Assembly (NCBI RefSeq): GCF_013315695.1
Contig: NZ_CP054353.1
DNA length: 64,000 bases
Source of the DNA: Escherichia coli
Lineage (GTDB): Bacteria; Pseudomonadota; Gammaproteobacteria; Enterobacterales; Enterobacteriaceae
Strand: one strand, 5' to 3'
Each line of letters starts with the position of its first letter. The first letter of the stretch is position 1. The notes below the pieces were generated by a model that saw only the letters and a program-made list of their open reading frames with translations, made no database searches and was not told where the DNA came from. A program made the position numbers and the translations under genes. This document shows, piece by piece, positions 49 through 14,619 of this stretch.

Positions 49-449
49 ATAGATTAACCATCCATTCATTGGATTAACAAACATTCCTGGTCAAATAACC
101 TATGAGTTCAGATTACCAAAACGGAGGGTAAAGACAAAAACAAAAGCACAAGAAATTTAAATAGATAAACAGCGACAATACATAAATGATAAATAAGTCA
201 GCATTATCATTTTTCACCTTATTTTCATGACATTGATCACTTTGGAGTGACGAATTTGTTTAACAAATAACTCTTCGACATCAAAATTATTAATAGTTGC
301 CATTGGAATTATTTCGATGATATATAAAAACAACTGTGATAACACCAGGGTTGACAACTATTTGCGCAATAATACCTTTCCTTCAATGATCCAGGCGTTC
401 ACTGCCAGCAACCCATTCAGCCGCATACTGACAGTGAGAAACTGAAAGT

Positions 450-553
450 TTAGTGCTGATCCCTGTGGCTGACGAGTCTTTCCCTTAATCGATTAACCAG
501 ATTGATCGCCAGCCAAACAAGGGCATTAAGCAAATTTATCGTCACAAGCACTT
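450..553 (-). pseudogene. ymgF: ymgF 3' fragment (codons 41-72), separated from the 5' part by IS2
   Basis: Minus-strand translation (E)[33 protein letters not shown] continues in frame from the fragment at 1871-1990; together they give a 72-aa small membrane protein matching recalled YmgF. Confidence 0.7.
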
Positions 554-1456
554 TGGATTTGCCCCTATATTATCACTTAACCCATTACAAGCCCGCTGCC
601 GCAGATATTCCCGTGGCGAGCGATAACCCAGCGCACTATGCGGATGCCATTCGTTATAATGCTCGAACGCCTCTGCAAGGTTCTTTGCTGCCGTTAACCC
701 GTCTGGTTTGGGCATGATACTGATGTAGTCACGCTTTATCGTTTTCACGAAGCTCTCTGCTATTCCGTTACTCTCCGGACTCCGCACCGCCGTGTTCTTC
801 GGTTCAAGTCCCAACATCCGGGCGAACTGGCGTGTTTCATTAGCCCGGTAGCATGAACCATTATCCGTCAGCCACTCCACTGGAGACGACGGAAGATCGT
901 TGCCGAAGCGGCGTTCCACCGCTCCCAGCATGACGTCCTGTACTGTTTCACTGTTGAAGCCGCCGGTAGTGACCGCCCAGTGCAGTGCCTCACGATCACT
1001 GCAGTCCAGCGCGAACGTGACACGCAGTCTCTCTCCGTTATCACAGCAGAACTCGAACCCGTCAGAGCACCATCGCTGATTGCTTTCTTTCACGGCCACT
1101 CTGCCTGTATGTGCCCGTTTCGATGGCGGTACAGCAGGTTTTCGCTCAAGCAACAGCGCATTCTGGCGCATGATCCGGTAAACACGTTTGGCATTGATCG
1201 CAGGCATACCATCAAGTTCTGCCTGTCTGCGAAGCAGCGCCCATACCCGACGATAACCATACGTGGGCAGCTCTCCGATAACATGGTGTATACGGAGAAG
1301 CACATCCGTATCATCAGTGTGACGACTGCGGCGGCCATCCATCCAGTCATCGGTTCGTCTGAGAATGACGTGCAACTGCGCACGCGACACCCGGAGACAA
1401 CGGCTGACTAAGCTTACTCCCCATCCCCGGGCAATAAGGGCGCGTGCGCTATCCAC
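542..1456 (-). CDS. insD: IS2 transposase InsD (OrfB), variant C-terminus; ORF terminates 12 bp outside the IS end
   Basis: 304-aa ORF matching recalled IS2 InsD except the tail ...[12 protein letters not shown] (canonical recalled as ...LSDNRCLEI). Confidence 0.85.
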
Positions 1457-1870
1457 TTTTTTGCCCGTCCATATTCAACGGCTTCTTTGAGGAGTTCATT
1501 TTCCATCGTTTTCTTGCCGAGCAGGCGCTGGAGTTCTTTAATCTGCTTCATGGCGGCAGCAAGTTCAGAGGCAGGAACAACCTGTTCTCCGGCGGCGACA
1601 GCAGTAAGACTTCCTTCCTGGTATTGCTTACGCCAGAGAAATAACTGGCTGGCTGCTACACCATGTTGCCGGGCAACGAGGGAGACCGTCATCCCCGGTT
1701 CAAAGCTCTGCTGAACAATTGCGATCTTTTCCTGTGTGGTACGCCGTCTGCGTTTCTCCGGTCCTAAGACATCAATCATCTGCTCTCCAATGACTAGTCT
1801 AAAAACTAGTATTAAGACTATCACTTAAATAAGTGATACTGGTTGTCTGGAGATTCAGGGGGCCAGTCTA
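554..1870 (-). mobile_element. IS2: IS2 insertion sequence, 1317 bp, flanked by 5-bp direct target duplication CACTT (549-553 and 1871-1875)
   Basis: Terminal sequences TGGATTTGCCCC (554 onward) and GGGGGCCAGTCTA (ending 1870) match IS2 ends; insC and insD ORFs inside; identical 5-bp flanks. Confidence 0.9.
1414..1779 (-). CDS. insC: IS2 InsC (OrfA) transposase regulatory subunit
   Basis: Track ORF contains [26 protein letters not shown]...; start adjusted to conserved Met (121 aa). Confidence 0.9.
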
Positions 1871-1990
1871 CACTTCTCCCAGCCCGGTACTGGGTTTTGC
1901 AATAAGGATGACCAGGAGAGTGATCAGCATAAATGCAATGGAAAAGATGATATAGAGAGTGAAATAATCCAGATTATTACTATTGTTCAT
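1871..1990 (-). pseudogene. ymgF: ymgF 5' fragment (codons 1-40) truncated by the IS2 insertion
   Basis: Manual minus-strand translation MNNSNNLDYFTLYIIFSIAFMLITLLVILIAKPSTGLGEV ends at the IS2 left end. Confidence 0.7.
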
Positions 1991-2121: not shown

Positions 2122-3645
2122 TCACTCAACCACAACCTTCACCTTCGGTTTAGAAAGGATAATTTTGACCAGGTCGATGTATGTAACAGGTTTATAGAAA
2201 TAATAACCCTGCTGAAATGTGATATTATTTTGGTTCAGATAATCAAGTTGTTCTTTCGTTTCGACACCTTCAGCGACGATACTGATCGAAAGTTTACGCG
2301 CCAGATCCAATACACAATCCAGAATTCGGGTTGATTCTGGGTCTGCGTTGACGCGGCCAACGAAACTGTGATCAATTTTGATATAATCAATATGCAGGTC
2401 ATGCAGATAAGAAAGCCCTGAGTAGCCAGTACCGAAATCATCCAGCGCGATGACAAAACCATTTTCATGCAGAATGTTCAACCGCTGAACCAGACTTTCA
2501 TCAACATTTAATGGCTCACGCTCGGTGACTTCCAGAACGAGGTTTAAATCGCGGCGGGTAAAACTGTCACGGTAATTTAAGCACTCGTCGACAAACGTCG
2601 GCGAAATAATATGCGAGGCGCTAAAATTAATTCCAATATGAAAACCTTCCGGCAGTTTACTCGAGATAGCGTTCATCTGTCTGGCAACCTGATTCATCAG
2701 GCTTTGCGTAAGCGGAACGATTAATCCGGATTTTTCAGCAAGTGGAATAAATGCCGCGGGTGATATATATCCACCGTGAAGTTGTTTCCAGCGGGCTAAC
2801 ACCTCAACTCCCCGCAATGTCCCTTCCCGACCATTTACCACAGGTTGGTAAAAAGGGACGATCTCCCCATTATTTATTGCCCGTCGCAGGATCTCTTCAG
2901 GCGTTGCGCATTTATTGAAATACCTATCAAGCAGCAAAGCAGCGGCGCAGGCGATTAACAGAATAAATATCAAAATCCCAAAGCCTTTATCGATAAGTCT
3001 GTAGAAGCTAAAGAGTGGCGGCGGGTTAAAGATAATAGTGAAATGATATTTTGTGGAGTGAACCTTCTCGGTATAGGGATAATGTCCATTAAGCGTCATC
3101 ACATCACCCGTTGGTCCAATAATGTCATCCGCCACGCGTAATACATACCTTACCCCTTTCAAGGGTACATTAAGCGCCCCGCGAATATGCTGATCACTTA
3201 TCGTAACCAAAATGCGCGTATCTGCAAATTGGCTCTGATAGAGCAGGATAGGTAATCTATTAACGGTGTCGATTGCCGGAGCCAACAGTAAATTACTGTC
3301 CGGGACAACAGGAATACGAGACAGCAGGACCCGATTCCCCGGTAAGGATGTACACCAGACCGTTCCCTGTTTGAGAATGATGATTGTGCGCAGGTGAGGT
3401 TTCAGAGCTGCTTCAGTGCCAAGCTGATATTGCTCCTCGAGGTCGCATTCCTTCCCGGCAATGTTAACCGCTGTTTGAGTCGCCTGTGACGCTTCTTCAA
3501 GTATATGATTGATATTGTTGGCGGCATATCTCGCTCCTGCCAGGTACTCTGCTTTTGCGGAATACCAGAGCTGGATGTTCAAAATAGCGACACCGGTTAT
3601 AAACAAGCATATCGCAACGAGGATGGGTATGAGTGTATTGCGCAT
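2122..3645 (-). CDS. pdeG: CSS-domain cyclic di-GMP phosphodiesterase (EAL domain) PdeG/YcgG
   Basis: Track ORF 2122..3687; N-terminal TM, periplasmic CSS region, C-terminal EAL domain; start set at MRNTLIPILV (507 aa). Confidence 0.85.
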   Translation of the reverse strand: MRNTLIPILVAICLFITGVAILNIQLWYSAKAEYLAGARYAANNINHILEEASQATQTAVNIAGKECDLEEQYQLGTEAALKPHLRTIIILKQGTVWCTSLPGNRVLLSRIPVVPDSNLLLAPAIDTVNRLPILLYQSQFADTRILVTISDQHIRGALNVPLKGVRYVLRVADDIIGPTGDVMTLNGHYPYTEKVHSTKYHFTIIFNPPPLFSFYRLIDKGFGILIFILLIACAAALLLDRYFNKCATPEEILRRAINNGEIVPFYQPVVNGREGTLRGVEVLARWKQLHGGYISPAAFIPLAEKSGLIVPLTQSLMNQVARQMNAISSKLPEGFHIGINFSASHIISPTFVDECLNYRDSFTRRDLNLVLEVTEREPLNVDESLVQRLNILHENGFVIALDDFGTGYSGLSYLHDLHIDYIKIDHSFVGRVNADPESTRILDCVLDLARKLSISIVAEGVETKEQLDYLNQNNITFQQGYYFYKPVTYIDLVKIILSKPKVKVVVE

Positions 3646-3828
3646 TTGCTTGTCCCGGCCAAAGGGTTTAATACATGAAAATGCCATTCATTCGCTCGCG
3701 CTGGCATCTACAGAGAGCATGGTAGAGAGCATAAGAAATATCCACGCCGAAGATAAAATTTTCTCCATCTTGATCTAACCCATTAATTATTGAGCATAAT
3801 GTAGATAGAATAAAATAAATTAGGCGGG

Positions 3829-3882
3829 ATATCAGGTGTCAAGAATGGAGAGCGAGAACTCTCCATTCTTGACACCTGATAT
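3829..3882. repeat. Perfect 24-bp inverted repeat with 6-nt loop; probable bidirectional terminator or protein-binding palindrome between ymgC and pdeG
   Basis: ATATCAGGTGTCAAGAATGGAGAG-cgagaa-CTCTCCATTCTTGACACCTGATAT read directly. Confidence 0.8.
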
Positions 3883-3976
3883 TGCGGACATATTAAGAAA
3901 GCATAACGCCTGAAATGCTCACTTTGCACCAGCATGGTAATACAGCTGATGTTTATTCTATAACCTTACTCAAGTT

Positions 3977-4225
3977 CTAAGAGATCACGGATTCCCTGTC
4001 ATTAATAATGATATCCGTTAGTGTAGTCTTATGCATTTCAATGTACTGCAATATTTGCAGATAGAGATCAGAAAGAATCACACTGGTTTCATCTTTTAAA
4101 CGCAAGCGTAAAGCCTGATCAATAATATAACTATCAACATACCCATGCGTCATGAACACCTCCCTCTCGAGATTTTTAAACAAAGCACATTGCAAAATAA
4201 ATCTCTCTGGGATTGAATTATTCAT
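3977..4225 (-). CDS. ymgC: YmgC small protein (ycgZ-ymgA-ariR-ymgC operon)
   Basis: 82-aa ORF MNNSIPERFILQCALFKNLERE... matches recalled YmgC. Confidence 0.85.
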   Translation of the reverse strand: MNNSIPERFILQCALFKNLEREVFMTHGYVDSYIIDQALRLRLKDETSVILSDLYLQILQYIEMHKTTLTDIIINDRESVIS

Positions 4226-4337
4226 GTCAGCCTCGTAGAAATATTAACCCAATAAAATTATGCTGTGTATAGTCTAAAGCGACAGACAAAAATAAGATGA
4301 ATGAGTTTTCTATAAATTTATACTTAATAATTAAAAG

Positions 4338-4604
4338 TCACATATCATCCGCTGTGTATCGCAACACGATTTCCAGTGTTTTTCTGATCACATCAGCTTT
4401 GAGGATATCATTTGTTGTTTCCAGGGAGTGTATCAGACTTAAGATAATATTTTTATTATTAACATTATCGCCTGAAAGCATTAAATTGGTGACAGCCTGC
4501 CCTAACACAGCTGACTCTTCTTCTAACAAATTACCCGAACTGCGAAAGTAACTTGATAACGCTTTATCAGCTATTGCATTATGAATAGTAGTATCTTCAA
4601 GCAT
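4338..4604 (-). CDS. ariR: AriR/YmgB, biofilm and acid-resistance regulator
   Basis: 88-aa [23 protein letters not shown]... matches recalled AriR. Confidence 0.85.
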
Positions 4605-4632
4605 AGTAACCTCTCATCTTACTTATGAAATT

Positions 4633-4905
4633 TTAATGTATTCTGTTTATTTTCTTACCATTGAAAATACTTTTATTGTCAGTTATCGCTGTTCTTCTGT
4701 TTGGCCCTCCTGTATCACTGTTACTAAAATCACGAATTATGCTGTCAATTAAATCTCGTCGGAAAGCATTTTCCTCAACAGATTTCATTACGAGTAATTG
4801 CTTAATAAGAGTCTGCAACGAAAAATTTATCTTCATGCGCAGTATCTGGAGCACCGCCTGGCCAGTAATTTCATATTTTGTACTTTCATTATCAGATGTC
4901 TTCAT
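4633..4905 (-). CDS. ymgA: YmgA small regulatory protein
   Basis: 90-aa ORF MKTSDNESTKYEITGQAVLQ... matches recalled YmgA. Confidence 0.85.
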   Translation of the reverse strand: MKTSDNESTKYEITGQAVLQILRMKINFSLQTLIKQLLVMKSVEENAFRRDLIDSIIRDFSNSDTGGPNRRTAITDNKSIFNGKKINRIH

Positions 4906-4947
4906 AACGACTTCATAGCTAACCTGTTAAATAATCAGGCTGTTGCA

Positions 4948-5184
4948 TTATTCAAAAAGCAACCCAATTAGTGCATTATAATGTTTCTGTTCCTCTTCCC
5001 CTGTCGCTTGTTCCAGTCTGCCTAGAAGTTTGGCACAAAGCGACTTTCGACTCAGATTACGTCCATCTTTCAAAATCTCAGTCACAATTTCCCCGAGAGT
5101 TTCCTGCTGAGTAGGCAAGTTAGCTTTTGCAAAGTAACGAGTGATTGCTCCCGCAGAATCTAAAGTCACTGAATTTTGATGCAT
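4948..5184 (-). CDS. ycgZ: YcgZ small regulatory protein
   Basis: 78-aa ORF MHQNSVTLDSAGAITRYFAK... matches recalled YcgZ. Confidence 0.85.
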   Translation of the reverse strand: MHQNSVTLDSAGAITRYFAKANLPTQQETLGEIVTEILKDGRNLSRKSLCAKLLGRLEQATGEEEQKHYNALIGLLFE

Positions 5185-5497
5185 GCTACGCCTCTGTTAA
5201 AAATGTTAATCAATGTTAAGTAAGGTAACAATAGCAAACTTGTACGAAATATGTGTACAAAATGATAAATTAATTTTTTGCATTTAGTGCTAATACATAC
5301 AAAACAACAGGTTATGATAAAAAATATTGCATCATTTAAATAACAACCTATACAAGAATTTTCGCCAACTCATCTTCAACTTTTTCCATTTTTTATCAAT
5401 GTAAAGAAACAGTTATGTTTTGGTATTAAAAGAAAGACACCGGAAGATATGTCTGTTACCGTCTTACTCTCGCCTCTCCCATTACCCTGGACAGTTA
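5185..5497. promoter_or_regulatory. Divergent ycgZ / bluF promoter region (expected BluR-repressed ycgZ promoter)
   Basis: AT-rich 313-bp intergenic region between divergent operons; operator not located. Confidence 0.4.
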
Positions 5498-6709
5498 ATG
5501 CTTACCACCCTTATTTATCGTAGCCATATACGTGACGACGAACCTGTCAAAAAAATCGAAGAAATGGTTTCGATAGCAAATCGCAGGAACATGCAGTCTG
5601 ACGTAACAGGGATCTTACTGTTTAATGGTTCTCATTTTTTCCAGCTTCTGGAAGGTCCGGAAGAACAGGTTAAAATGATATATCGGGCTATATGCCAGGA
5701 TCCACGGCACTATAATATTGTTGAGCTGATGTGCGATTACGCGCCTGCTCGCCGTTTTGGCAAAGCGGGAATGGAATTATTTGATTTGCGCCTGCACGAG
5801 CGAGATGACGTTTTACAGGCCGTATTCGACAAAGGCACATCAAAATTTCAGCTAACTTATGATGACAGAGCGCTACAATTTTTTCGTACTTTTGTCCTTG
5901 CAACCGAACAAGCAACCTATTTCGAGATCCCTGCCGAAGACTCCTGGCTTTTTATCGCTGACGGATCTGATAAAGAACTTGATTCCTGTACCCTTTCACC
6001 AACTATAAACGACCACTTTGCCTTTCATCCTATTGTCGATCCCTTATCGCGGCGGATAATCGCTTTTGAAGCCATTGTGCAAAAAAATGAAGATAGCCCA
6101 TCAGCTATAGCGGTTGGGCAGCGTAAAGACGGGGAAATCTATACAGCGGATCTCAAAAGTAAGGCGCTTGCATTCGCGATGGCACACGCACTTGAGCTCG
6201 GTGATAAAATGATTTCAATCAATCTATTACCTATGACCCTGGTTAACGAACCTGACGCAGTCTCTTTTTTACTTGATGAAATAAAGGCCAATGCTCTGGT
6301 GCCTGAACAAATCATCGTTGAATTTACTGAAAGTGAAGTCATATCTCGGTTTGATGAGTTTGCAGAAGCGATTAAATCGCTTAAGGCTGCCGGTATCAGT
6401 GTAGCAATTGATCATTTTGGCGCAGGTTTTGCCGGTTTGTTACTCCTGTCACGCTTCCAGCCTGACAGAATTAAAATCAGTCAGGAATTGATTACCAATG
6501 TTCATAAAAGCGGGCCACGGCAGGCAATTATTCAAGCGATCATAAAATGCTGTACATCACTTGAAATTCAAGTCTCTGCTATGGGTGTGACAACACCAGA
6601 AGAGTGGATGTGGCTTGAATCTGCAGGAATTGAGATGTTTCAGGGAGATCTGTTTGCGAAAGCTAAATTGAATGGTATCCCTTCAGTTGCGTGGCCGGAG
6701 AAAAAATAA
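5498..6709 (+). CDS. bluF: Blue-light sensor BluF/YcgF (BLUF domain plus degenerate EAL domain)
   Basis: Track ORF 5420..6709; start set at MLTTLIYRSHIRDDEP (403 aa). Confidence 0.85.
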   Translation: MLTTLIYRSHIRDDEPVKKIEEMVSIANRRNMQSDVTGILLFNGSHFFQLLEGPEEQVKMIYRAICQDPRHYNIVELMCDYAPARRFGKAGMELFDLRLHERDDVLQAVFDKGTSKFQLTYDDRALQFFRTFVLATEQATYFEIPAEDSWLFIADGSDKELDSCTLSPTINDHFAFHPIVDPLSRRIIAFEAIVQKNEDSPSAIAVGQRKDGEIYTADLKSKALAFAMAHALELGDKMISINLLPMTLVNEPDAVSFLLDEIKANALVPEQIIVEFTESEVISRFDEFAEAIKSLKAAGISVAIDHFGAGFAGLLLLSRFQPDRIKISQELITNVHKSGPRQAIIQAIIKCCTSLEIQVSAMGVTTPEEWMWLESAGIEMFQGDLFAKAKLNGIPSVAWPEKK

Positions 6710-6913
6710 TTTTCAGCACATTATTTCGTATGATTTCTGAAAATCATCGTGAAAATGAATACGTTATGTTTAAATTTAATCCACATTAAAAATAATGTTT
6801 CATTCAATTTAGCTGAAATCTTATTTATACTTTGTACAATTTTAGCGTATATTGTACAAAGTATTATTGGGTCGTGTACAGGCGACGGAGATTTGTGACC
6901 GCAAGGAGGAATT

Positions 6914-7645
6914 GTGGCTTATTACAGCATTGGTGATGTTGCTGAACGTTGCGGGATTAATCCTGTCACTCTCCGGGCCTGGCAACGCCGCTACGGTTTG
7001 TTAAAACCACAGCGCAGTGAAGGCGGACACCGACTCTTTGATGAAGAAGACATACAACGCATCGAAGAGATCAAGCGTTGGATAAGTAATGGCGTCCCTG
7101 TAGGCAAAGTTAAAGCATTACTGGAAACCACCAGCCAGGATACGGAAGATGACTGGAGCCGCCTGCAAGAAGAGATGATGTCAATTCTTCGTATGGCTAA
7201 TCCTGCCAAACTACGCGCGAGAATTATTTCACTGGGTCGAGAGTACCCAGTAGATCAATTGATTAATCATGTTTACCTTCCTGTTCGCCAGCGTCTCGTG
7301 CTTGATCACAACACCTCCCGCATTATGAGCAGTATGTTTGACGGCGCATTAATTGAATACGCAGCAGCCTCGCTTTTCGAAATGCGCCGTAAGCCCGGTA
7401 AAGAAGCCATTCTGATGGCGTGGAATGTTGAAGAGAGAGCACGATTGTGGCTGGAAGCATGGCGTTTATCATTGTCAGGATGGCACATTTCTGTTCTTGC
7501 TGATCCCATTGAATCGCCGCGCCCGGAACTGTTCCCGACGCAAACATTGATTGTCTGGACAGGCATGGCACCAACGAGAAGGCAAAACGAACTTTTACAA
7601 CACTGGGGTGAGCAAGGTTATAAAGTCATCTTCCATGCCCCCTAA
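6914..7645 (+). CDS. bluR: MerR-family repressor BluR/YcgE
   Basis: 243-aa ORF with N-terminal MerR HTH ([30 protein letters not shown]). Confidence 0.85.
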
Positions 7646-7865
7646 TTTCACCTTTATCCCGCCCCTTAGACAGAATGTTATAATCTGAACCCACAACAGC
7701 GTTTGTACCGGAGCTGGTCCATTACAAAATGCTCACCGGGAGAATTCAGGTAATCCCCCTTTCACACTTTGTACATATCACAGCCAAAGGACAGACCAGA
7801 TTGAAGTGGTAAAACCGATCGTGCACACTACGCAGTCTCACAACTAACAAGAGGTTATTATCCTG

Positions 7866-8270
7866 ATGGATCAGGTCGTTGTTTTTCAAAAGATGTTTGA
7901 GCAAGTGAGAAAAGAGCAAAACTTCTCCTGGTTTTATTCAGAATTAAAACATCACCGTATTGCACATTACATTTATTATCTAGCTACGGATAACATCAGA
8001 ATTATTACTCACGATGACACGGTTTTGTTATTAAGAGGAACCAGGAACCTGTTAAAAGTTAGTACGACCAAGAACCCTGCTAAAATAAAAGAGGCCGCAT
8101 TGCTTCATATTTGCGGAAAATCTACATTTCGGGAATACTGTTCAACACTGGCAGACGCGGGCGTTTTCCGGTGGGTTACTGATGTTAATCATAACAAACG
8201 CAGTTACTACGCCATTGATAATACGCTTTTATATATTGAAGATGTAGAAAACAATAAACCATTAATCTAG
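7866..8270 (+). CDS. ycgX: YcgX, DUF1398-like protein
   Basis: 134-aa ORF MDQVVVFQKMFEQVRKEQNF... matches recalled YcgX. Confidence 0.8.
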   Translation: MDQVVVFQKMFEQVRKEQNFSWFYSELKHHRIAHYIYYLATDNIRIITHDDTVLLLRGTRNLLKVSTTKNPAKIKEAALLHICGKSTFREYCSTLADAGVFRWVTDVNHNKRSYYAIDNTLLYIEDVENNKPLI

Positions 8271-8481
8271 CTAAAGTTGGATGCTTAAAAAATGCTTCAT
8301 AATTCAGTAAGGCATTAGCATAATGGAAATAAAAGTGCAGAGACTATTCATATGGATGAGTAATACTATCTTTTTATTGCCACCCATAAATAATCACCAG
8401 ATCAATACTATCAACTTGATATTTGAAATGTGATCACTTGACTTTTGATACGTTATTTTATAGCGGTTAACATATTTATAA

Positions 8482-8530
8482 AAAACAATGGGCGTGCCAT
8501 ACGCCCGTTTCAATACTTAACGCACATGTG
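8482..8530. repeat. Hairpin-containing ~50-bp repeat, copy A (GGGCGTGCCATACGCCCG stem-loop followed by TTTCAATACTTAAC), homologous to the icd terminator region
   Basis: About 85% identical to 9343-9395 by eye; possible ycgX terminator. Confidence 0.6.
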
Positions 8531-8974
8531 TTTTGGTTTAGTCATCATCCGGTTATATGTATTTTAGCCAGGAATGGGTTAAACCATTCCTATATAACTA
8601 AAAAATTGAAACCTTATTCTCATGTCATGCTTATATTCGTCATTATCGTTATATAAAAAGGCCAACCATAATGTTTAGCAAATTGGCACAAAGTAGTATA
8701 AAGGCTATGTTTTAATTACAGGATGTTCAGTCATTTGAATGTATAACATTTTAGCTAAACAAATCTAAAACGAAGTGAATAATTTAATGTTTTCACTAAA
8801 TCTCATTTTGTTTAATATCTATTGAGATTTCTTGCTTTAAATTTTGTTTTATATAAACAATGGTTTTAATTTTTAATTAATTTGTTTTTTGAGGGGGTAA
8901 TATACTCATATGCAAAATCAAGAAATAAAAATCCTAATGAACCATATTAAATACCGTGGGATAAGACATAACAA

Positions 8975-9298
8975 ATGAAGTGGATAGTAATTGACACGGT
9001 AATTCAACCTACATGCGGTATATCTTTTTCAGCCATATGGGGTGATATGAAAATGATCATCTGGTATCAATCCACTATATTTCTTCCTCCTGGCAGGATA
9101 TTTACACCGGTTAAGTCTGGTATTATCCTTAAGGATAAAGAATATCCTATTACTATTTATAACATCGCACCATTCAACAAGGATTTATGGAGTTTACTCA
9201 AAAGCAGTCAAGAGTGTCCTCCAGGAGAAAGCAAAATAACAAATAAATGTTTGCATAATAGTTGCATTATAAAAATATGCCCATATGGGCTCAAGTAA
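8975..9298 (+). CDS. iraM: Anti-adaptor protein IraM (RssB inhibitor, stabilises RpoS; PhoP-regulated)
   Basis: 107-aa [26 protein letters not shown]... matches recalled IraM/YcgW. Confidence 0.9.
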
Positions 9299-9342
9299 TG
9301 GGCTTCATATAAATATTCTCGACATGCTATTAATAATATCCA

Positions 9343-9395
9343 CATAAATAAAACAACGGGCGTGTTATACGCCCGTTTCAATATTTAACACATGT
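9343..9395. terminator. Hairpin, repeat copy B; probable bidirectional intrinsic terminator shared by iraM and icd
   Basis: GGGCGTGTTATACGCCCG stem-loop between the iraM stop (9298) and the icd stop (9401), flanked by T/A-rich runs. Confidence 0.6.
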
Positions 9396-9400
9396 AGAGA

Positions 9401-10651
9401 TTACATGTTCTTGATGATTGCATCACCAAACTCTGAACATTTCAGCAGTTTAGCGCCTTCCATCAGACGTTCGAAGTCATAGGTTACGGTCTTGGCATTG
9501 ATTGCGCCTTCCATACCTTTAACAATCAAGTCTGCGGCTTCAGTCCAGCCCATATGGCGTAACATCATCTCAGCGGAGAGAATAATAGAGCCTGGGTTTA
9601 CTTTGTCCTGACCGGCATATTTCGGCGCAGTACCGTGGGTGGCTTCAAACAGGGCGCATTCGTCACCGATGTTTGCGCCAGGGGCGATACCGATACCGCC
9701 AACCTGCGCTGCCAGGGCGTCAGAAATGTAGTCACCGTTCAGGTTCATACAGGCGATAACATCATATTCAGCCGGACGCAGCAGGATCTGTTGCAGGAAT
9801 GCATCAGCAATCACGTCTTTAATGACGATCTCTTTGCCGGTGTTCGGGTTTTTAACTTTCAGCCACGGGCCGCCGTCGATCAGTTCACCGCCAAACTCTT
9901 CACGCGCCAGCTGGTAGCCCCAGTCTTTAAACGCGCCTTCGGTGAACTTCATGATGTTGCCTTTGTGCACCAGGGTCACAGAGTCACGATCGTTAGCAAT
10001 TGCGTATTCGATCGCTGCACGAACCAGACGTTTGGTGCCTTCTTCAGAACACGGCTTAATACCGATACCGCAATGTTCCGGGAAGCGAATTTTCTTCACG
10101 CCCATCTCTTCACGCAGGAATTTAATCACTTTCTCAGCGTCGGCAGAGTCTGCTTTCCATTCGATACCCGCATAAATGTCTTCCGAGTTTTCACGGAAGA
10201 TAACCATATCGGTCAGTTCAGGGTGTTTAACCGGGCTTGGAGTGCCCTGATAGTAACGTACCGGACGCAGGCAGATGTAGAGATCCAGTTCCTGGCGCAG
10301 AGCAACGTTGAGAGAGCGAATACCGCCACCAACCGGAGTGGTCAGCGGGCCTTTGATGGCAACGCGATATTCACGAATCAGATCAAGGGTTTCAGCAGGT
10401 AGCCAGACATCCTGACCATAAACCTGTGTGGATTTTTCACCGGTGTAAATTTCCATCCAGGAGATTTTACGCTCGCCTTTATAGGCTTTCTCGACTGCAG
10501 CGTCGACCACTTTCAGCATGGCTGGGGTTACATCTACACCGATTCCATCACCTTCAATGTAAGGGATAATCGGATTTTCAGGAACGTTGAGTTTGCCGTT
10601 TTGCAGGGTGATCTTCTTGCCTTGTGCCGGAACAACTACTTTACTTTCCAT
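9401..10651 (-). CDS. icd: Isocitrate dehydrogenase (NADP)
   Basis: 416-aa [41 protein letters not shown]...; full length, not interrupted by prophage. Confidence 0.97.
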
Positions 10652-10822
10652 TCACCTCTCCTTCGAGCGCTACTGGTTTGCTCGTCTGCCACCACGTTGC
10701 ATATGCGTTTGCGTCCTGCGATACGGATGCGTTAGAGCAATTTTTTGTTAATGATTTGTAATTGGCTTGTCAATACTACCCTATTGTTTGCCGTCATGAA
10801 AGATGCGCGTTATTAGGCTATA
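10652..10822. promoter_or_regulatory. Divergent icd / original rluE promoter region
   Basis: 171-bp region between the icd start and the K-12-like rluE start codon at 10823. Confidence 0.5.
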
Positions 10823-10897
10823 ATGCGGCAATTCATAATCTCTGAAAATACCATGCAAAAAACTTCTTTTAGACCAAAGACAGTATTTTTCTGACCT
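10823..10897 (+). pseudogene. rluE: Remnant of the original rluE 5' end (17 K-12-like codons MRQFIISENTMQKTSFR, then out-of-context PKTVFF*)
   Basis: Read directly: ATGCGGCAATTCATAATCTCTGAAAATACCATGCAAAAAACTTCTTTTAGA; homology to recalled K-12 RluE N-terminus ends at 10873. Confidence 0.7.
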
Positions 10898-11112
10898 TCA
10901 AATAAGGTATTAAATATCAATAATTTATATCAGATTTTAAGCAATAAAAAAAACCACCAGAGATAACTAACAAGGTGCTATTTGGTCAAAATTTGACATT
11001 ACTCGATTCAGCGACTATCTCACTTTGAGCACTATTGGGAAAATTATCAAAAGTCATAGTTGAAGCGACAAGCAACGAGTAAATTATGGCATCCCCCCTT
11101 TTTGAGGTTCAC

Positions 11113-11199
11113 ATGAAACGCTTTGCACTGATAGCTGTGAAACTCGTTGCCTTTACTGGTTCTGCATCTGCTGCAACCGAAGAAATCAACTTCAAGTAA
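11113..11199 (+). CDS. Small ORF (28 aa) with signal-peptide-like N-terminus, inside the inserted segment
   Basis: MKRFALIAVKLVAFTGSASAATEEINFK*; GAGGT Shine-Dalgarno 5 nt upstream of the ATG. Confidence 0.35.
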   Translation: MKRFALIAVKLVAFTGSASAATEEINFK

Positions 11200-11232
11200 C
11201 AGAAACACTATATAACAATGGAGTGTTGACAA

Positions 11233-11682
11233 ATGGATACTACCGAAGAACGCAATGGAACATATTTCTACAGAGGACACCCGAACCTGTCCAAAATAGA
11301 ACTACTCAACGTCATATTCCTTGAAGAATTCTGTAAGGAATTGGGGATTGATTCGGTATCAGGTGCAGCAATCTTATCTGGTCAACCGTGGCTGGGTACA
11401 AGAGCGAAGCCGCAAGGGGCAACCCTGGGAACAAGTGTTGTCTCAAAGTATGCGCGTATACTGATGAGAGATGCACGCATGCCTTTTGGTATTTCTGTTC
11501 ATACACCAGTGGGTGTAAGGATGCAGAAATCTAATAAGCTTGCTGCAATTATCGCTCGTTGGGTCCCGTGGATTGGTTGGGCTTCACTGTCGATGAGTCT
11601 TTACAGGGTTTCGACTCGTACCCAGGAAAAATACAATCTGATTGCCAAACCTCAAGACCGTATTAAGTGGACTTCCTTCTAA
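11233..11682 (+). CDS. Hypothetical basic protein (149 aa), first gene of an inserted two-gene cassette; candidate toxin or effector
   Basis: Track ORF; GGAGTG upstream; net charge about +9 by residue count; no signal peptide or TM segment; not recognised. Confidence 0.6.
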   Translation: MDTTEERNGTYFYRGHPNLSKIELLNVIFLEEFCKELGIDSVSGAAILSGQPWLGTRAKPQGATLGTSVVSKYARILMRDARMPFGISVHTPVGVRMQKSNKLAAIIARWVPWIGWASLSMSLYRVSTRTQEKYNLIAKPQDRIKWTSF

Positions 11683-12017
11683 TGGCGACAACAATCACAG
11701 ACGAAGTTTTAGCACTGTTCCGTGATGAGATTCCAGGTTATCAGGATGACCACGGGAAGGAAATTCCGTTAGAACTGGACTCTGATTTGTTCGACTATCC
11801 ACGAGATGATTTAGAGGACGCTATACGGAAATACAAAGAGAGGTTTGGGATTAACCTGGATAATCTGGACTGGTCTTTGTACCTTCCATGGGAGTCTGCA
11901 CCATTGCTTCAACGATGGTTCAAGCTCAAGCGGGAAGAGGTAGAAACAACACGTTTACCGTTAACTGTACGGATGTTTGCAGAATCAGCAGAAGCGGGAA
12001 AATGGCTGTATCAGTAG
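11682..12017 (+). CDS. Hypothetical acidic protein (111 aa), second gene of the cassette; candidate immunity protein or antitoxin
   Basis: ATG overlaps the upstream stop (TAATG at 11680-11684); net charge about -10 (24 D/E versus 14 K/R); an in-frame ATG at 11667 is an alternative start. Confidence 0.6.
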   Translation: MATTITDEVLALFRDEIPGYQDDHGKEIPLELDSDLFDYPRDDLEDAIRKYKERFGINLDNLDWSLYLPWESAPLLQRWFKLKREEVETTRLPLTVRMFAESAEAGKWLYQ

Positions 12018-12036
12018 AATAAAAAAGAAGGCTGCG

Positions 12037-12099
12037 ATGCCCCTCTTATTACTGCTGATGATGGTAGTGGTAAAGCATCATCCTAAACTTGAACAGTGA
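12037..12099 (+). CDS. Tiny hydrophobic ORF (20 aa, MPLLLLLMMVVVKHHPKLEQ), speculative
   Basis: ATG preceded by GAAGG at appropriate spacing; located 20 bp after the cassette stop. Confidence 0.2.
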   Translation: MPLLLLLMMVVVKHHPKLEQ

Positions 12100-12349
12100 A
12101 GTGCTGTCACCCATCAGTAATACAGAAACACTATTTTTCATACCAGTATTTATTCAATTCATCAATGTAAAATGTGTTCATTGGGCCATATTTATCACCA
12201 TGCAGCCACACAACCGCTGCTCACTAACCCAGGTATTGATGAAACCGCGCTGAAGAGCCTGAACCCTGAACCTCTAACGAGTACCTTAAAAGTCCAATGC
12301 AATCCGACACTGTGCTACCCTCTGCGTAAAGCTCTATTTGGAATTTACC

Positions 12350-12988
12350 ATGAAATACTTTAGCGATTCTAAATCTTCTTTTAGAAAAAAACAGGTTAGT
12401 CGACTAAACTCGCAACACTCCACTAAGCGTAAACCTGAAAACCAGCCCACGCGTGTGATCCTGTTCAATAAACCCTACGATGTTCTTCCGCAGTTCACCG
12501 ATGAAGCCGGACGCAAAACATTAAAAGAATTCATCCCGGTTCAGGGCGTTTATGCAGCAGGTCGTCTTGACCGCGATAGCGAAGGGTTACTGGTGCTGAC
12601 CAATAACGGCGCGTTGCAGGCGCGTTTAACCCAGCCGGGTAAACGCACCGGAAAAATCTATTATGTGCAGGTGGAAGGTATTCCCACACAAGACGCACTT
12701 GAAGCCTTGCGCAATGGCGTAACCTTAAATGATGGCCCTACCCTGCCCGCAGGCGTAGAGCTGGTTGACGAACCCGCGTGGTTATGGCCGCGGAATCCAC
12801 CAATTCGTGAACGCAAAAGTATTCCCACCAGCTGGCTTAAGATCACCTTATATGAAGGACGTAATCGCCAGGTGCGCCGCATGACCGCCCATGTTGGTTT
12901 CCCCACGCTGCGACTGATTCGCTATGCGATGGGTGATTACTCTTTGGATAATCTTGCCAACGGCGAATGGCGAGAAGCGACAGATTAA
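12350..12988 (+). CDS. rluE: 23S rRNA pseudouridine2457 synthase RluE, mosaic allele with divergent N-terminus
   Basis: Track ORF 12338..12988 (TTG); ATG at 12350 gives [39 protein letters not shown]...; body matches recalled RluE from PENQPTRV onward. Confidence 0.85.
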
Positions 12989-12997
12989 GGACGCAAA

Positions 12998-14619
<1,622 letters not shown>

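Follow-up and report, generated by a model that had tools for sequence, protein, structure and literature searches.

How can a gene for ribosome modification stay readable when foreign DNA has entered its very start, and by what route did that DNA arrive? The question is raised by rluE, an rRNA-modification gene, in a 64,000-nucleotide stretch of Escherichia coli DNA (RefSeq assembly GCF_013315695.1, contig NZ_CP054353.1; the whole stretch is called the window below, and coordinates refer to it), where about 1.55 kb of foreign DNA, bearing two cargo genes and a substitute rluE start, is lodged inside the start of the gene. The insertion is real and ancient-looking, and represents a gene-end-replacing islet at a hot spot, otherwise a known kind of thing. 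The preferred reading, to which we give a probability of roughly 0.55, is that the islet (10874-12427) is a horizontally acquired, reduced and integrase-less member of a group of variable-cargo islands fixed to one rluE nucleotide, and that it was imported ready-made by homologous recombination.

The junctions are best seen against E. coli K-12 MG1655, where the gene order is hflD-mnmA-nudJ-rluE followed by icd and where the icd-rluE interval is 171 bp, the short interval that a preliminary description of this DNA had assumed. Up to position 10873 the window is identical to MG1655 at 273 of 274 aligned positions; the K-12 match picks up again at 12371 (601/627 identical), and the two alignments share 15 K-12 bases, which therefore form an imperfect direct repeat in the window (14/15 identical) and are present as a single copy in the empty K-12 site. 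Within this repeat, the exact 11-mer CTTCTTTTAGA occurs at two places in the 64 kb, both of them breakpoints, against an expectation of 0.01 in shuffled sequence, and the local alignment of the left and right junction regions (attL and attR) outscores 299 of 300 shuffles, expected counts and alignment ranks being taken from shuffled sequence throughout. From its ATG at 10823, 171 bp from the icd start, the open reading frame (ORF) of the displaced gene start reads MRQFIISENTMQKTSFR and then PKTVFF-stop, the frame continuing into a stop codon at 10892-10894 (full translation MRQFIISENTMQKTSFRPKTVFF, followed by the stop). The preliminary description had proposed an insertion of about 1.5 kb in the 5′ end of rluE, with a K-12-like start at 10823 broken after codon 17, an 11-bp string at both junctions (10863-10873 and 12375-12385) and a downstream resumption of rluE with a divergent N-terminus; all its coordinates hold, with K-12 breaks at 10873 and 12371, K-12 identity up to 10873, no further copy of the string in the 64 kb, and an ATG at 12350 that opens a gene matching the RluE equivalog. 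The features on which the argument turns are the following.

10823..10873, + strand: native 5′ end of rluE, now displaced, with 17 codons as annotated, K-12-identical to 10873
10859..10873, + strand: junction repeat, left copy, AAAACTTCTTTTAGA, with the exact 11-mer at 10863-10873
12350..12374, + strand: islet-borne substitute rluE start, MKYFSDSK..., which is the PGAP-annotated rluE start
12371..12385, + strand: junction repeat, right copy, AAATCTTCTTTTAGA, from the K-12 alignment and the 11-mer count
12386..12427, + strand: foreign 42-bp patch, 14 residues replacing the native 14, from the K-12 comparison
12350..12988, + strand: rluE, 212 aa, composed of the substitute start, the patch and the native catalytic body; RluE equivalog match of 469.6 bits

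The divergent replacement copy of the gene end that had been suspected is rluE itself, rebuilt from a start that the islet carries: an ATG and a 12-codon leader join the repeat in frame at its SFR codons, and this substitute start resembles none of the native starts of 78 species. Directly to the right of the repeat, 13 mismatches to K-12 are crowded within 12388-12426, the next one being found only at 12547, and the patch so delimited is about 69% identical to K-12 and identical at no more than 29 of 42 positions to the native tail of any other sampled species. When a query in which attR was joined to the K-12 tail was run against all carriers of the insertion, it matched 374/374 at 90-95% identity only and none at a higher value, so that every carrier (374/374) has the patch; this linkage is a clean natural example of a short foreign patch locked to an indel. 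A protein search for the donor with the variant N-terminus returned just fragments of ordinary RluE.

As to the protein, the equivalog match (NCBIfam cut-off 284 bits) spans residues 8-212, and the protein is near-identical to PDB 2OLW where the two align. Crystallised core construct 2OML starts only at window residue 24, equivalent to K-12 residue 29, which places the replaced basic N-terminal tail mostly outside the catalytic core, and the rluE of the window is predicted to be functional with its substitute tail. The NCBIfam RluE profile begins at the second ATG, and the conserved RluE start is probably MQKTSFR, the 217-aa K-12 annotation being maybe too long; if so, the remnant beside icd retains only seven true codons. 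The annotated 10-codon extension MRQFIISENT (window 10823-10852) has an in-frame stop in many Citrobacter. The islet also explains the two length classes of RluE in RefSeq, 212 and 217 aa.

Which of the two layouts is ancestral follows from their distribution. Of the rluE loci from 80 Enterobacteriaceae species representatives, 78 have the native start (...ENTM[QK]KTSFR...) running unbroken into the gene, those of E. albertii and two further non-coli Escherichia among them, and icd lies about 150-270 bp from rluE in these contiguous-start species, as read where the contig extends far enough. Within E. coli, the uninterrupted K-12-type junction is found in 5050 of 5426 complete genomes (~93%) and the insertion in 374 (~7%), and this survey of the junction in 5426 genomes revealed no third state besides empty and occupied. 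A contiguous start in 78/80 species and in ~93% of E. coli indicates that the empty site is ancestral and that the occupied layout is an insertion, as the preliminary description had supposed. The carriers include IAI39, a strain named ST648, MS 69-1 and the blood isolate AF3, the last being 100% identical to the window, and elsewhere than at this locus the islet was encountered in one place only, on a plasmid-typed record. The islet is a stable chromosomal polymorphism in E. coli, phylogenetically stable and not invasive, and is usable as a stable presence/absence marker within the species.

The limits of the unit that moves are given by a second species. In Escherichia sp. E1V33, a separate species, identity to the window is just 90.9% in the rluE body and 96-99% in the islet, the substitute start and the patch, and the bases that are specific to E1V33 and common to other non-coli Escherichia begin at window position 12430. 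The transferable unit extends from 10874 to 12427-12429 in two species backgrounds. Variation among carriers is unevenly spread over this unit: the left arm is its most variable part, with up to 24 differences in 359 bp, a truncated signal-peptide ORF next to it shows 6-bp indels, the first cargo gene (STM2901 family) differs at 0-3 of 450 positions, and the substitute start together with the patch at 0-1 of 78. Two left-arm haplotypes about 7% apart are found over window 10874-11232, the cargo genes differing by <1%, and the E1V33 islet has the MB53/R32-type left arm, one of the two E. coli haplotypes.

A sister island is present in Enterobacter cloacae M-7, where 13.4 kb lie between icd and rluE with a cargo unlike that of the E. 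coli islet, including a YadA-type adhesin, a Bor homologue, an Aca2-like protein and small ORFs; a recombinase Pfam family is recorded on no gene of the 13.4-kb island. The M-7 remnant ends ...GCTTTTAGA and the gene resumes with AAAACTTCTTTTAGA, its break after ...TTTTAGA coinciding to the base with the one in E. coli. The left arms are 70.9% identical over 265 aligned bases from the junction, and the M-7 substitute start (MSNTRKYHNNSK / MSNTRKYHNNSKTSFR) is akin to its E. coli counterpart and resembles none of the native starts. The same base, a homologous left arm and a related start make the two islands one family with different cargo. The M-7 left arm leads into a gene for a 143-aa secreted protein, of which the 28-codon ORF of the E. 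coli islet is the truncated counterpart; homologues of the 143-aa protein were found in a single cluster only, no C-terminal remnant of it is present in the window, and a suspected kinship with DUF1493 was dropped, the two being unrelated on comparison.

The flanks of the M-7 island are informative about how it arrived. Its nearest relatives, the E. hormaechei group, are ~95% identical, and against them the M-7 remnant shows 3 mismatches in its last 21 bp after more than 150 identical bases, and on the other side of the island the 38 bp next to the repeat have 6 mismatches, with none in the following 57 bp; the M-7 patch is Enterobacter-like and unlike the E. coli patch. This extra divergence on both sides of the island is the signature of import by homologous recombination with donor flank, not of site-specific integration.

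Loss of the islet can also be followed. A query in which the left flank was joined to the patch, run on the complete E. coli genomes, was contiguous in exactly two of them, HS-02 (100%) and O157:H7 TR01 (99.1%). The HS-02 scar is a clean join inside the 11-mer, the exact product of a crossover there, and the TR01 scar reads TTTTAGA-CC-AAAACAGG, CC being the first two islet bases retained; each scar records an independent deletion across the short repeats. Such repeat-mediated loss leaves recognisable scars, and the existence of the scar alleles indicates that the patch-bearing rluE allele works without the islet. The haplotype of HS-02 (NZ_CP172818) from icd to phoQ resembles that of islet carriers, and at this locus TR01 (NZ_CP033605, locus 4642-9900, window ~9425-14524) has dozens of differences from EDL933, from icd to mnmA; the ~5-kb tract of TR01 is imported from an unsampled lineage and carries the patch-bearing, islet-less rluE.

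Mobile forms were sought in several collections. No attP-like or reciprocal circular junction was seen in the 5426 genomes, in which assemblies would rarely capture circles, and a scan of IMG/VR with the conserved left-arm motif gave 0 matches; a metagenome scan with the left-arm motif gave 3 contigs, all of them the same E. coli islet. Three apparent signs of mobility were set aside: the one left-arm match in a phage collection is an icd-3′ prophage prediction spanning host flank; the one in a plasmid collection (96.9% to the chromosomal islet) is presumably a chromosomal segment; and the 8 IMG/VR matches to a motif of substitute start and core are attributable to chance, none of them being accompanied by rluE.

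How, then, did the islet reach E. coli? The foreign 42-bp patch to the right of attR in 374/374 carriers and the E1V33 boundary at 12427-12429 are more than a simple crossover at CTTCTTTTAGA, with E. coli as the target, can account for, and the last step into Escherichia looks like the homologous-recombination import of a preformed junction together with a donor-flank stub. The preliminary description had left the choice between site-specific and homology-facilitated integration, and had asked whether the 11-mer is the crossover point in every occupied site. That the site is special stands, the M-7 island breaking after the same ...TTTTAGA, while integration at the site in E. coli meets the E1V33 segment end at 12427-12429 and the want of any attP-like junction in 5426 genomes; likewise, the 11-mer does mark both junctions in 374/374 carriers, and the HS-02 scar is a crossover inside it, but the 42 bp beyond the repeat are foreign, which a crossover confined to the 11-mer leaves out of account.

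On the preferred reading, the junction would have been made once, or by a recombinase since lost, in another enterobacterial host. Escherichia would then have gained this ready-made junction by homologous recombination in the flanks, with icd and the remnant on the left and RluE-domain DNA on the right, and the import would have retained 42 bp of the donor rluE tail. The native promoter and first codons would have been severed and left as a 51-bp remnant beside icd, rluE being restored by the islet-borne ATG and 12-codon leader with only its basic N-terminal tail swapped. Thereafter, the islet would have been exchanged among Escherichia lineages as one unit, and recombination of its short junction repeats would occasionally have removed it.

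Several points weigh against this reading. A donor taxon with a native copy of the patch-encoded tail is absent from the 80 species; host sequence in both E. coli and E1V33 resumes right at the patch edge with no leftover donor bases, and so sharp an edge at ~80% identity means that recombination must have resolved exactly at the limit of homology; the left remnant of E. coli is without any donor-type bases; and a junction at the same nucleotide with a conserved left arm in two genera also fits a site-specific recombinase.

This last point introduces the main rival, in which the islet, as a decayed or satellite element, integrated directly and site-specifically into E. coli rluE by means of a recombinase supplied in trans or since deleted, AAAACTTCTTTTAGA being the core and the left arm an attP arm. 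Such an origin would explain the identical junction nucleotide in Escherichia and Enterobacter despite the different cargo, the conserved left arm with an IHF-consensus-like ATCAAnnnnTTA about 40 bp from the core (as read off the M-7 alignment), the short repeats at both junctions, and the scar variants AA and CC beside the core, which are expected from segregation of a heteroduplex overlap. However, neither island has an integrase family match, the 5426 genomes hold no attP-like junction, and conservative recombination would keep the bases beyond attR native, yet 374/374 carriers have a foreign patch there; moreover, each patch resembles the relatives of its host and not the other patch, and is thus not an element arm, and donor-like bases are also found to the left of the M-7 junction. 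Direct integration is therefore regarded as possible, on balance unlikely. Doubtful, too, is the broader proposal that some unrecognised site-specific mechanism, a recombinase in trans or homing-type copying, is aimed at rluE codon 17, where it installs integrase-less, variable-cargo, start-carrying islands and co-converts the next 42 bp; if true, the islands would belong to a 'gene-start-swapping' cassette family operating across enterobacterial genera.

Less credit is due to a one-off illegitimate recombination facilitated by homology, in which the donor's own rluE start lay behind the cargo, the right end was anchored in rluE, the left end was illegitimate, and the resemblance to Enterobacter is coincidental. 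In agreement with it, the substitute start and the patch make up a complete in-frame basic RluE tail, ~69% identical to native tails, there is no integrase, and the right boundary coincides with the start of the conserved-domain DNA. Yet two independent events would hardly have hit the same recipient base and a homologous first base of the left arm, and 0/78 native rluE starts resemble MKYFSDSK or KYHNNSK, while the two substitute starts are interrelated, all of which renders this origin improbable. Very improbable is a homing-like spread, in which the naive tail would be cut by a nuclease whose gene lies elsewhere or once lay in the island, and repair would co-convert a cleavage-resistant patch: the islet is indeed fully linked to a highly divergent patch beside the insertion point, and the boundaries of the unit are sharp and identical in two species, but the islet has no nuclease or homing-endonuclease family match, is of low frequency, phylogenetically stable and not invasive, and the M-7 patch is only mildly divergent. 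Finally, it is scarcely credible that the occupied layout is ancestral and that K-12 arose from it by deletion between the repeats since, although such deletions do occur, they yield a patch-bearing scar (2 genomes) and not the K-12 allele, the K-12 tail fits the family-wide consensus RNH.V.RFSS, and the idea is refuted by the outgroups, 78/80 species including E. albertii having a contiguous native start.

The islet itself has a G+C content of 30-46%, against ~50% in the flanks, and every one of its genes is co-oriented with rluE. Its parts to the left of the substitute start are listed below.

10874..11112, + strand: left arm, non-coding, 239 bp, sharing homology with the left end of the M-7 island
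11113..11199, + strand: truncated signal-peptide ORF, MKRFALIAVKLVAFTGSASAATEEINFK followed by a stop, 87 bp (28 codons and the stop), remnant of the first island gene
11199..11211, + strand: 13-bp exact repeat ACAGAAACACTAT, left copy, also present in E1V33
11233..11682, + strand: STM2901-family / DUF8209 gene, 149 aa; NF045926 match of 156 bits, full length
11682..12017, + strand: DUF1493 gene, 111 aa; PF07377 match with E = 1.3e-29 over model positions 3-107 of 108
12018..12349, + strand: right non-coding part, 332 bp, upstream of the substitute start, with no ORF that has a family match
12122..12134, + strand: 13-bp exact repeat ACAGAAACACTAT, right copy, from a repeat search

STM2901 and DUF1493 are the sole family matches of the islet (the NCBIfam cut-off for NF045926 being 110 bits), and no integrase family was found among its ORFs in the ORF list, NCBIfam or Pfam, as the preliminary description had stated for this segment, nor any nuclease or homing-endonuclease family. 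An Rfam scan of 10500-12600 at permissive thresholds gave no match, and the right non-coding part (12018-12349) is without homology to the M-7 island. The repeat ACAGAAACACTAT, of which the 64-kb window holds only two copies (0.01 expected), brackets the STM2901-DUF1493 pair, lengthens to 19 bp with AGTAA and one gap, and is as unlikely by chance as the outer junction repeat; this suggests that the pair entered an older island, or displaced earlier cargo, in a second repeat-associated event. A division of the islet into three tandem units of the left-arm motif was rejected: the similarity of attL to the sites at 11199 and 12122 does not rise above shuffles (p = 0.8 and 0.2), so that only the 11199/12122 repeat is real.

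The two cargo genes, the DUF1493 start overlapping the STM2901 stop (TAATG), form a pair that is conserved in all five contexts examined. The closest STM2901 relatives are 68-88% identical, always keep the DUF1493 partner and carry PF26636. Two unrelated genomes, 'Enterobacteriaceae bacterium 89' and a Citrobacter, have the pair directly behind an orphan hcp between housekeeping genes, and the STM2901 protein of this hcp-linked Citrobacter genome is on record on well over 100 contigs; a Lelliottia copy of the pair retains the last bases of hcp as a 3′ remnant, and a Cronobacter copy is without hcp. Judged by this gene neighbourhood, the likeliest identity of the cargo is a small type VI secretion effector carried by Hcp, together with an immunity or accessory partner, here lacking its hcp, and the STM2901/DUF8209 and DUF1493 families are thereby placed in a testable type VI secretion context. 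Counting against this assignment, the islet has no hcp or hcp remnant upstream of STM2901, and the model of the STM2901 protein is without a PDB fold match. The AlphaFold 2 (AF2) model of the STM2901 protein has a pLDDT of 72 and a long C-terminal helix; that of the DUF1493 protein has a pLDDT of 87 and weak, non-significant matches of acyl-carrier-protein-like type. For the pair, PADLOC gave no match, PHROGs only families of unknown function, and a PDB sequence search nothing; no functional treatment of DUF1493, STM2901 or DUF8209 was found in the literature. Two database proteins of 153-189 aa hold PF07377 and PF26636 in one chain, either by gene fusion or as an artefact of gene calling; a DUF1493-DUF8209 fusion, if true, argues against a simple toxin/immunity relationship.

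The pair may be compared with the orphan hcp-effector-immunity islets of type VI secretion, to which it is similar in that both families follow an orphan hcp in two genomes and the second gene overlaps the first; the size of the first protein, 149 aa, is compatible with a cargo of the Hcp lumen. It differs from them in that the E. coli islet has no hcp and neither family has a reported toxin or immunity activity, and we know of no immunity protein with an acyl-carrier-protein-like fold.

How rluE is expressed behind this cargo can be judged from the promoter-like sites, scored as matches out of 12 to the sigma-70 consensus with a threshold of at least 8/12 for an islet promoter. The best promoter-like site of the region is the native one.

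10796..10824, + strand: native rluE promoter-like site, ATGAAA-17-TATAAT, 10/12 consensus matches, K-12-identical

The 332 bp before the substitute start contain no promoter-like site with at least 8/12 matches, and no terminator-like site was found on the + strand. Because the genes are co-oriented and neither a terminator-like nor an internal promoter-like site intervenes, the native rluE promoter probably drives the remnant, the cargo and rluE as one transcript. Two insertion sequence (IS) elements bear on this arrangement: in IAI39 an IS3-family element (locus 3332-5094) interrupts STM2901, and in strain 24A16CRGN010 another (locus 5322-6499) lies at about window 12129, in the right 13-bp repeat, rluE being intact in both. 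The cargo is accordingly dispensable, and rluE copes with an IS 233 bp upstream. Telling against read-through, the intact rluE behind the IS at ~12129 means that the final ~220 bp may hold some expression signal.

Outside the islet, the locus is framed by two conserved genes.

9401..10651, − strand: icd, left conserved flank, 416-aa ORF, annotated icd in AF3
12998..13459, + strand: nudJ, right conserved flank, from the ORF list and the AF3 annotation

The gene iraM (window 8975-9400) directly follows the icd 3′ end, so that no e14/phage 21-type prophage is present at icd here; IAI39 and the genome behind phage record ON470584 have an icd prophage adjoining the islet, and HS-02, like K-12, bears an e14-like prophage there (lit, intE, ymfD, ymfE). 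With an icd prophage present in some carriers and absent here, the two insertions flanking icd are independent. Compared with E. coli, the spacing between rluE and nudJ is larger at several Citrobacter and Kluyvera loci and two further ones, by ~1 kb (Citrobacter) to ~5 kb (Kluyvera), and this greater distance marks the rluE-nudJ junction as a second variable spot of the cluster. Farther away, an IS2 at window 436-1990 (transposase ~551-1779) splits the small gene ymgF (AF3 annotation), and an ECIAI39_1904-family autotransporter adhesin gene has its end near window position 36.

No paper was found that links rluE to an island or integration site, and known systems provide the closest parallels. 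Prophages of the e14 and phage 21 type at the icd 3′ end are similar in inserting into a housekeeping gene, supplying a non-identical substitute end and displacing a native remnant; the e14 feature of K-12 begins 165 bp inside icd, and the mechanism by which e14 replaces the icd end is said to have been described by Hill et al. 1989. Unlike them, the rluE islet swaps a 5′ end, start codon included and with it probably the promoter context, it has no integrase or excisionase and no free attP was seen, and its remnant stops at a short repeat and not at the end of a homology block. With the islands at tRNA and tmRNA 3′ ends, which depend on tyrosine integrases, the islet shares a fixed and reused site, different cargo and short target-derived repeats, and integrase-less remnants are common among them; it differs in its protein-coding 5′ target, in that neither member has an integrase, and in the foreign DNA that lies beyond the repeat on the chromosome side. 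O-antigen and capsule-type loci and recombination hot-spot islets likewise have no mobility genes, keep constant boundaries and donor flank stubs, and are exchanged as units, whereas the boundary of the rluE islet is intragenic and needs a duplicated, re-engineered gene start, and, apart from left arm and substitute start, rluE islands with unlike cargo have nothing in common. Placed beside these systems, the locus presents an insertion hot spot within the start of a ribosome-modification gene that is used to the nucleotide in two genera, where a swap of the start keeps the gene working.

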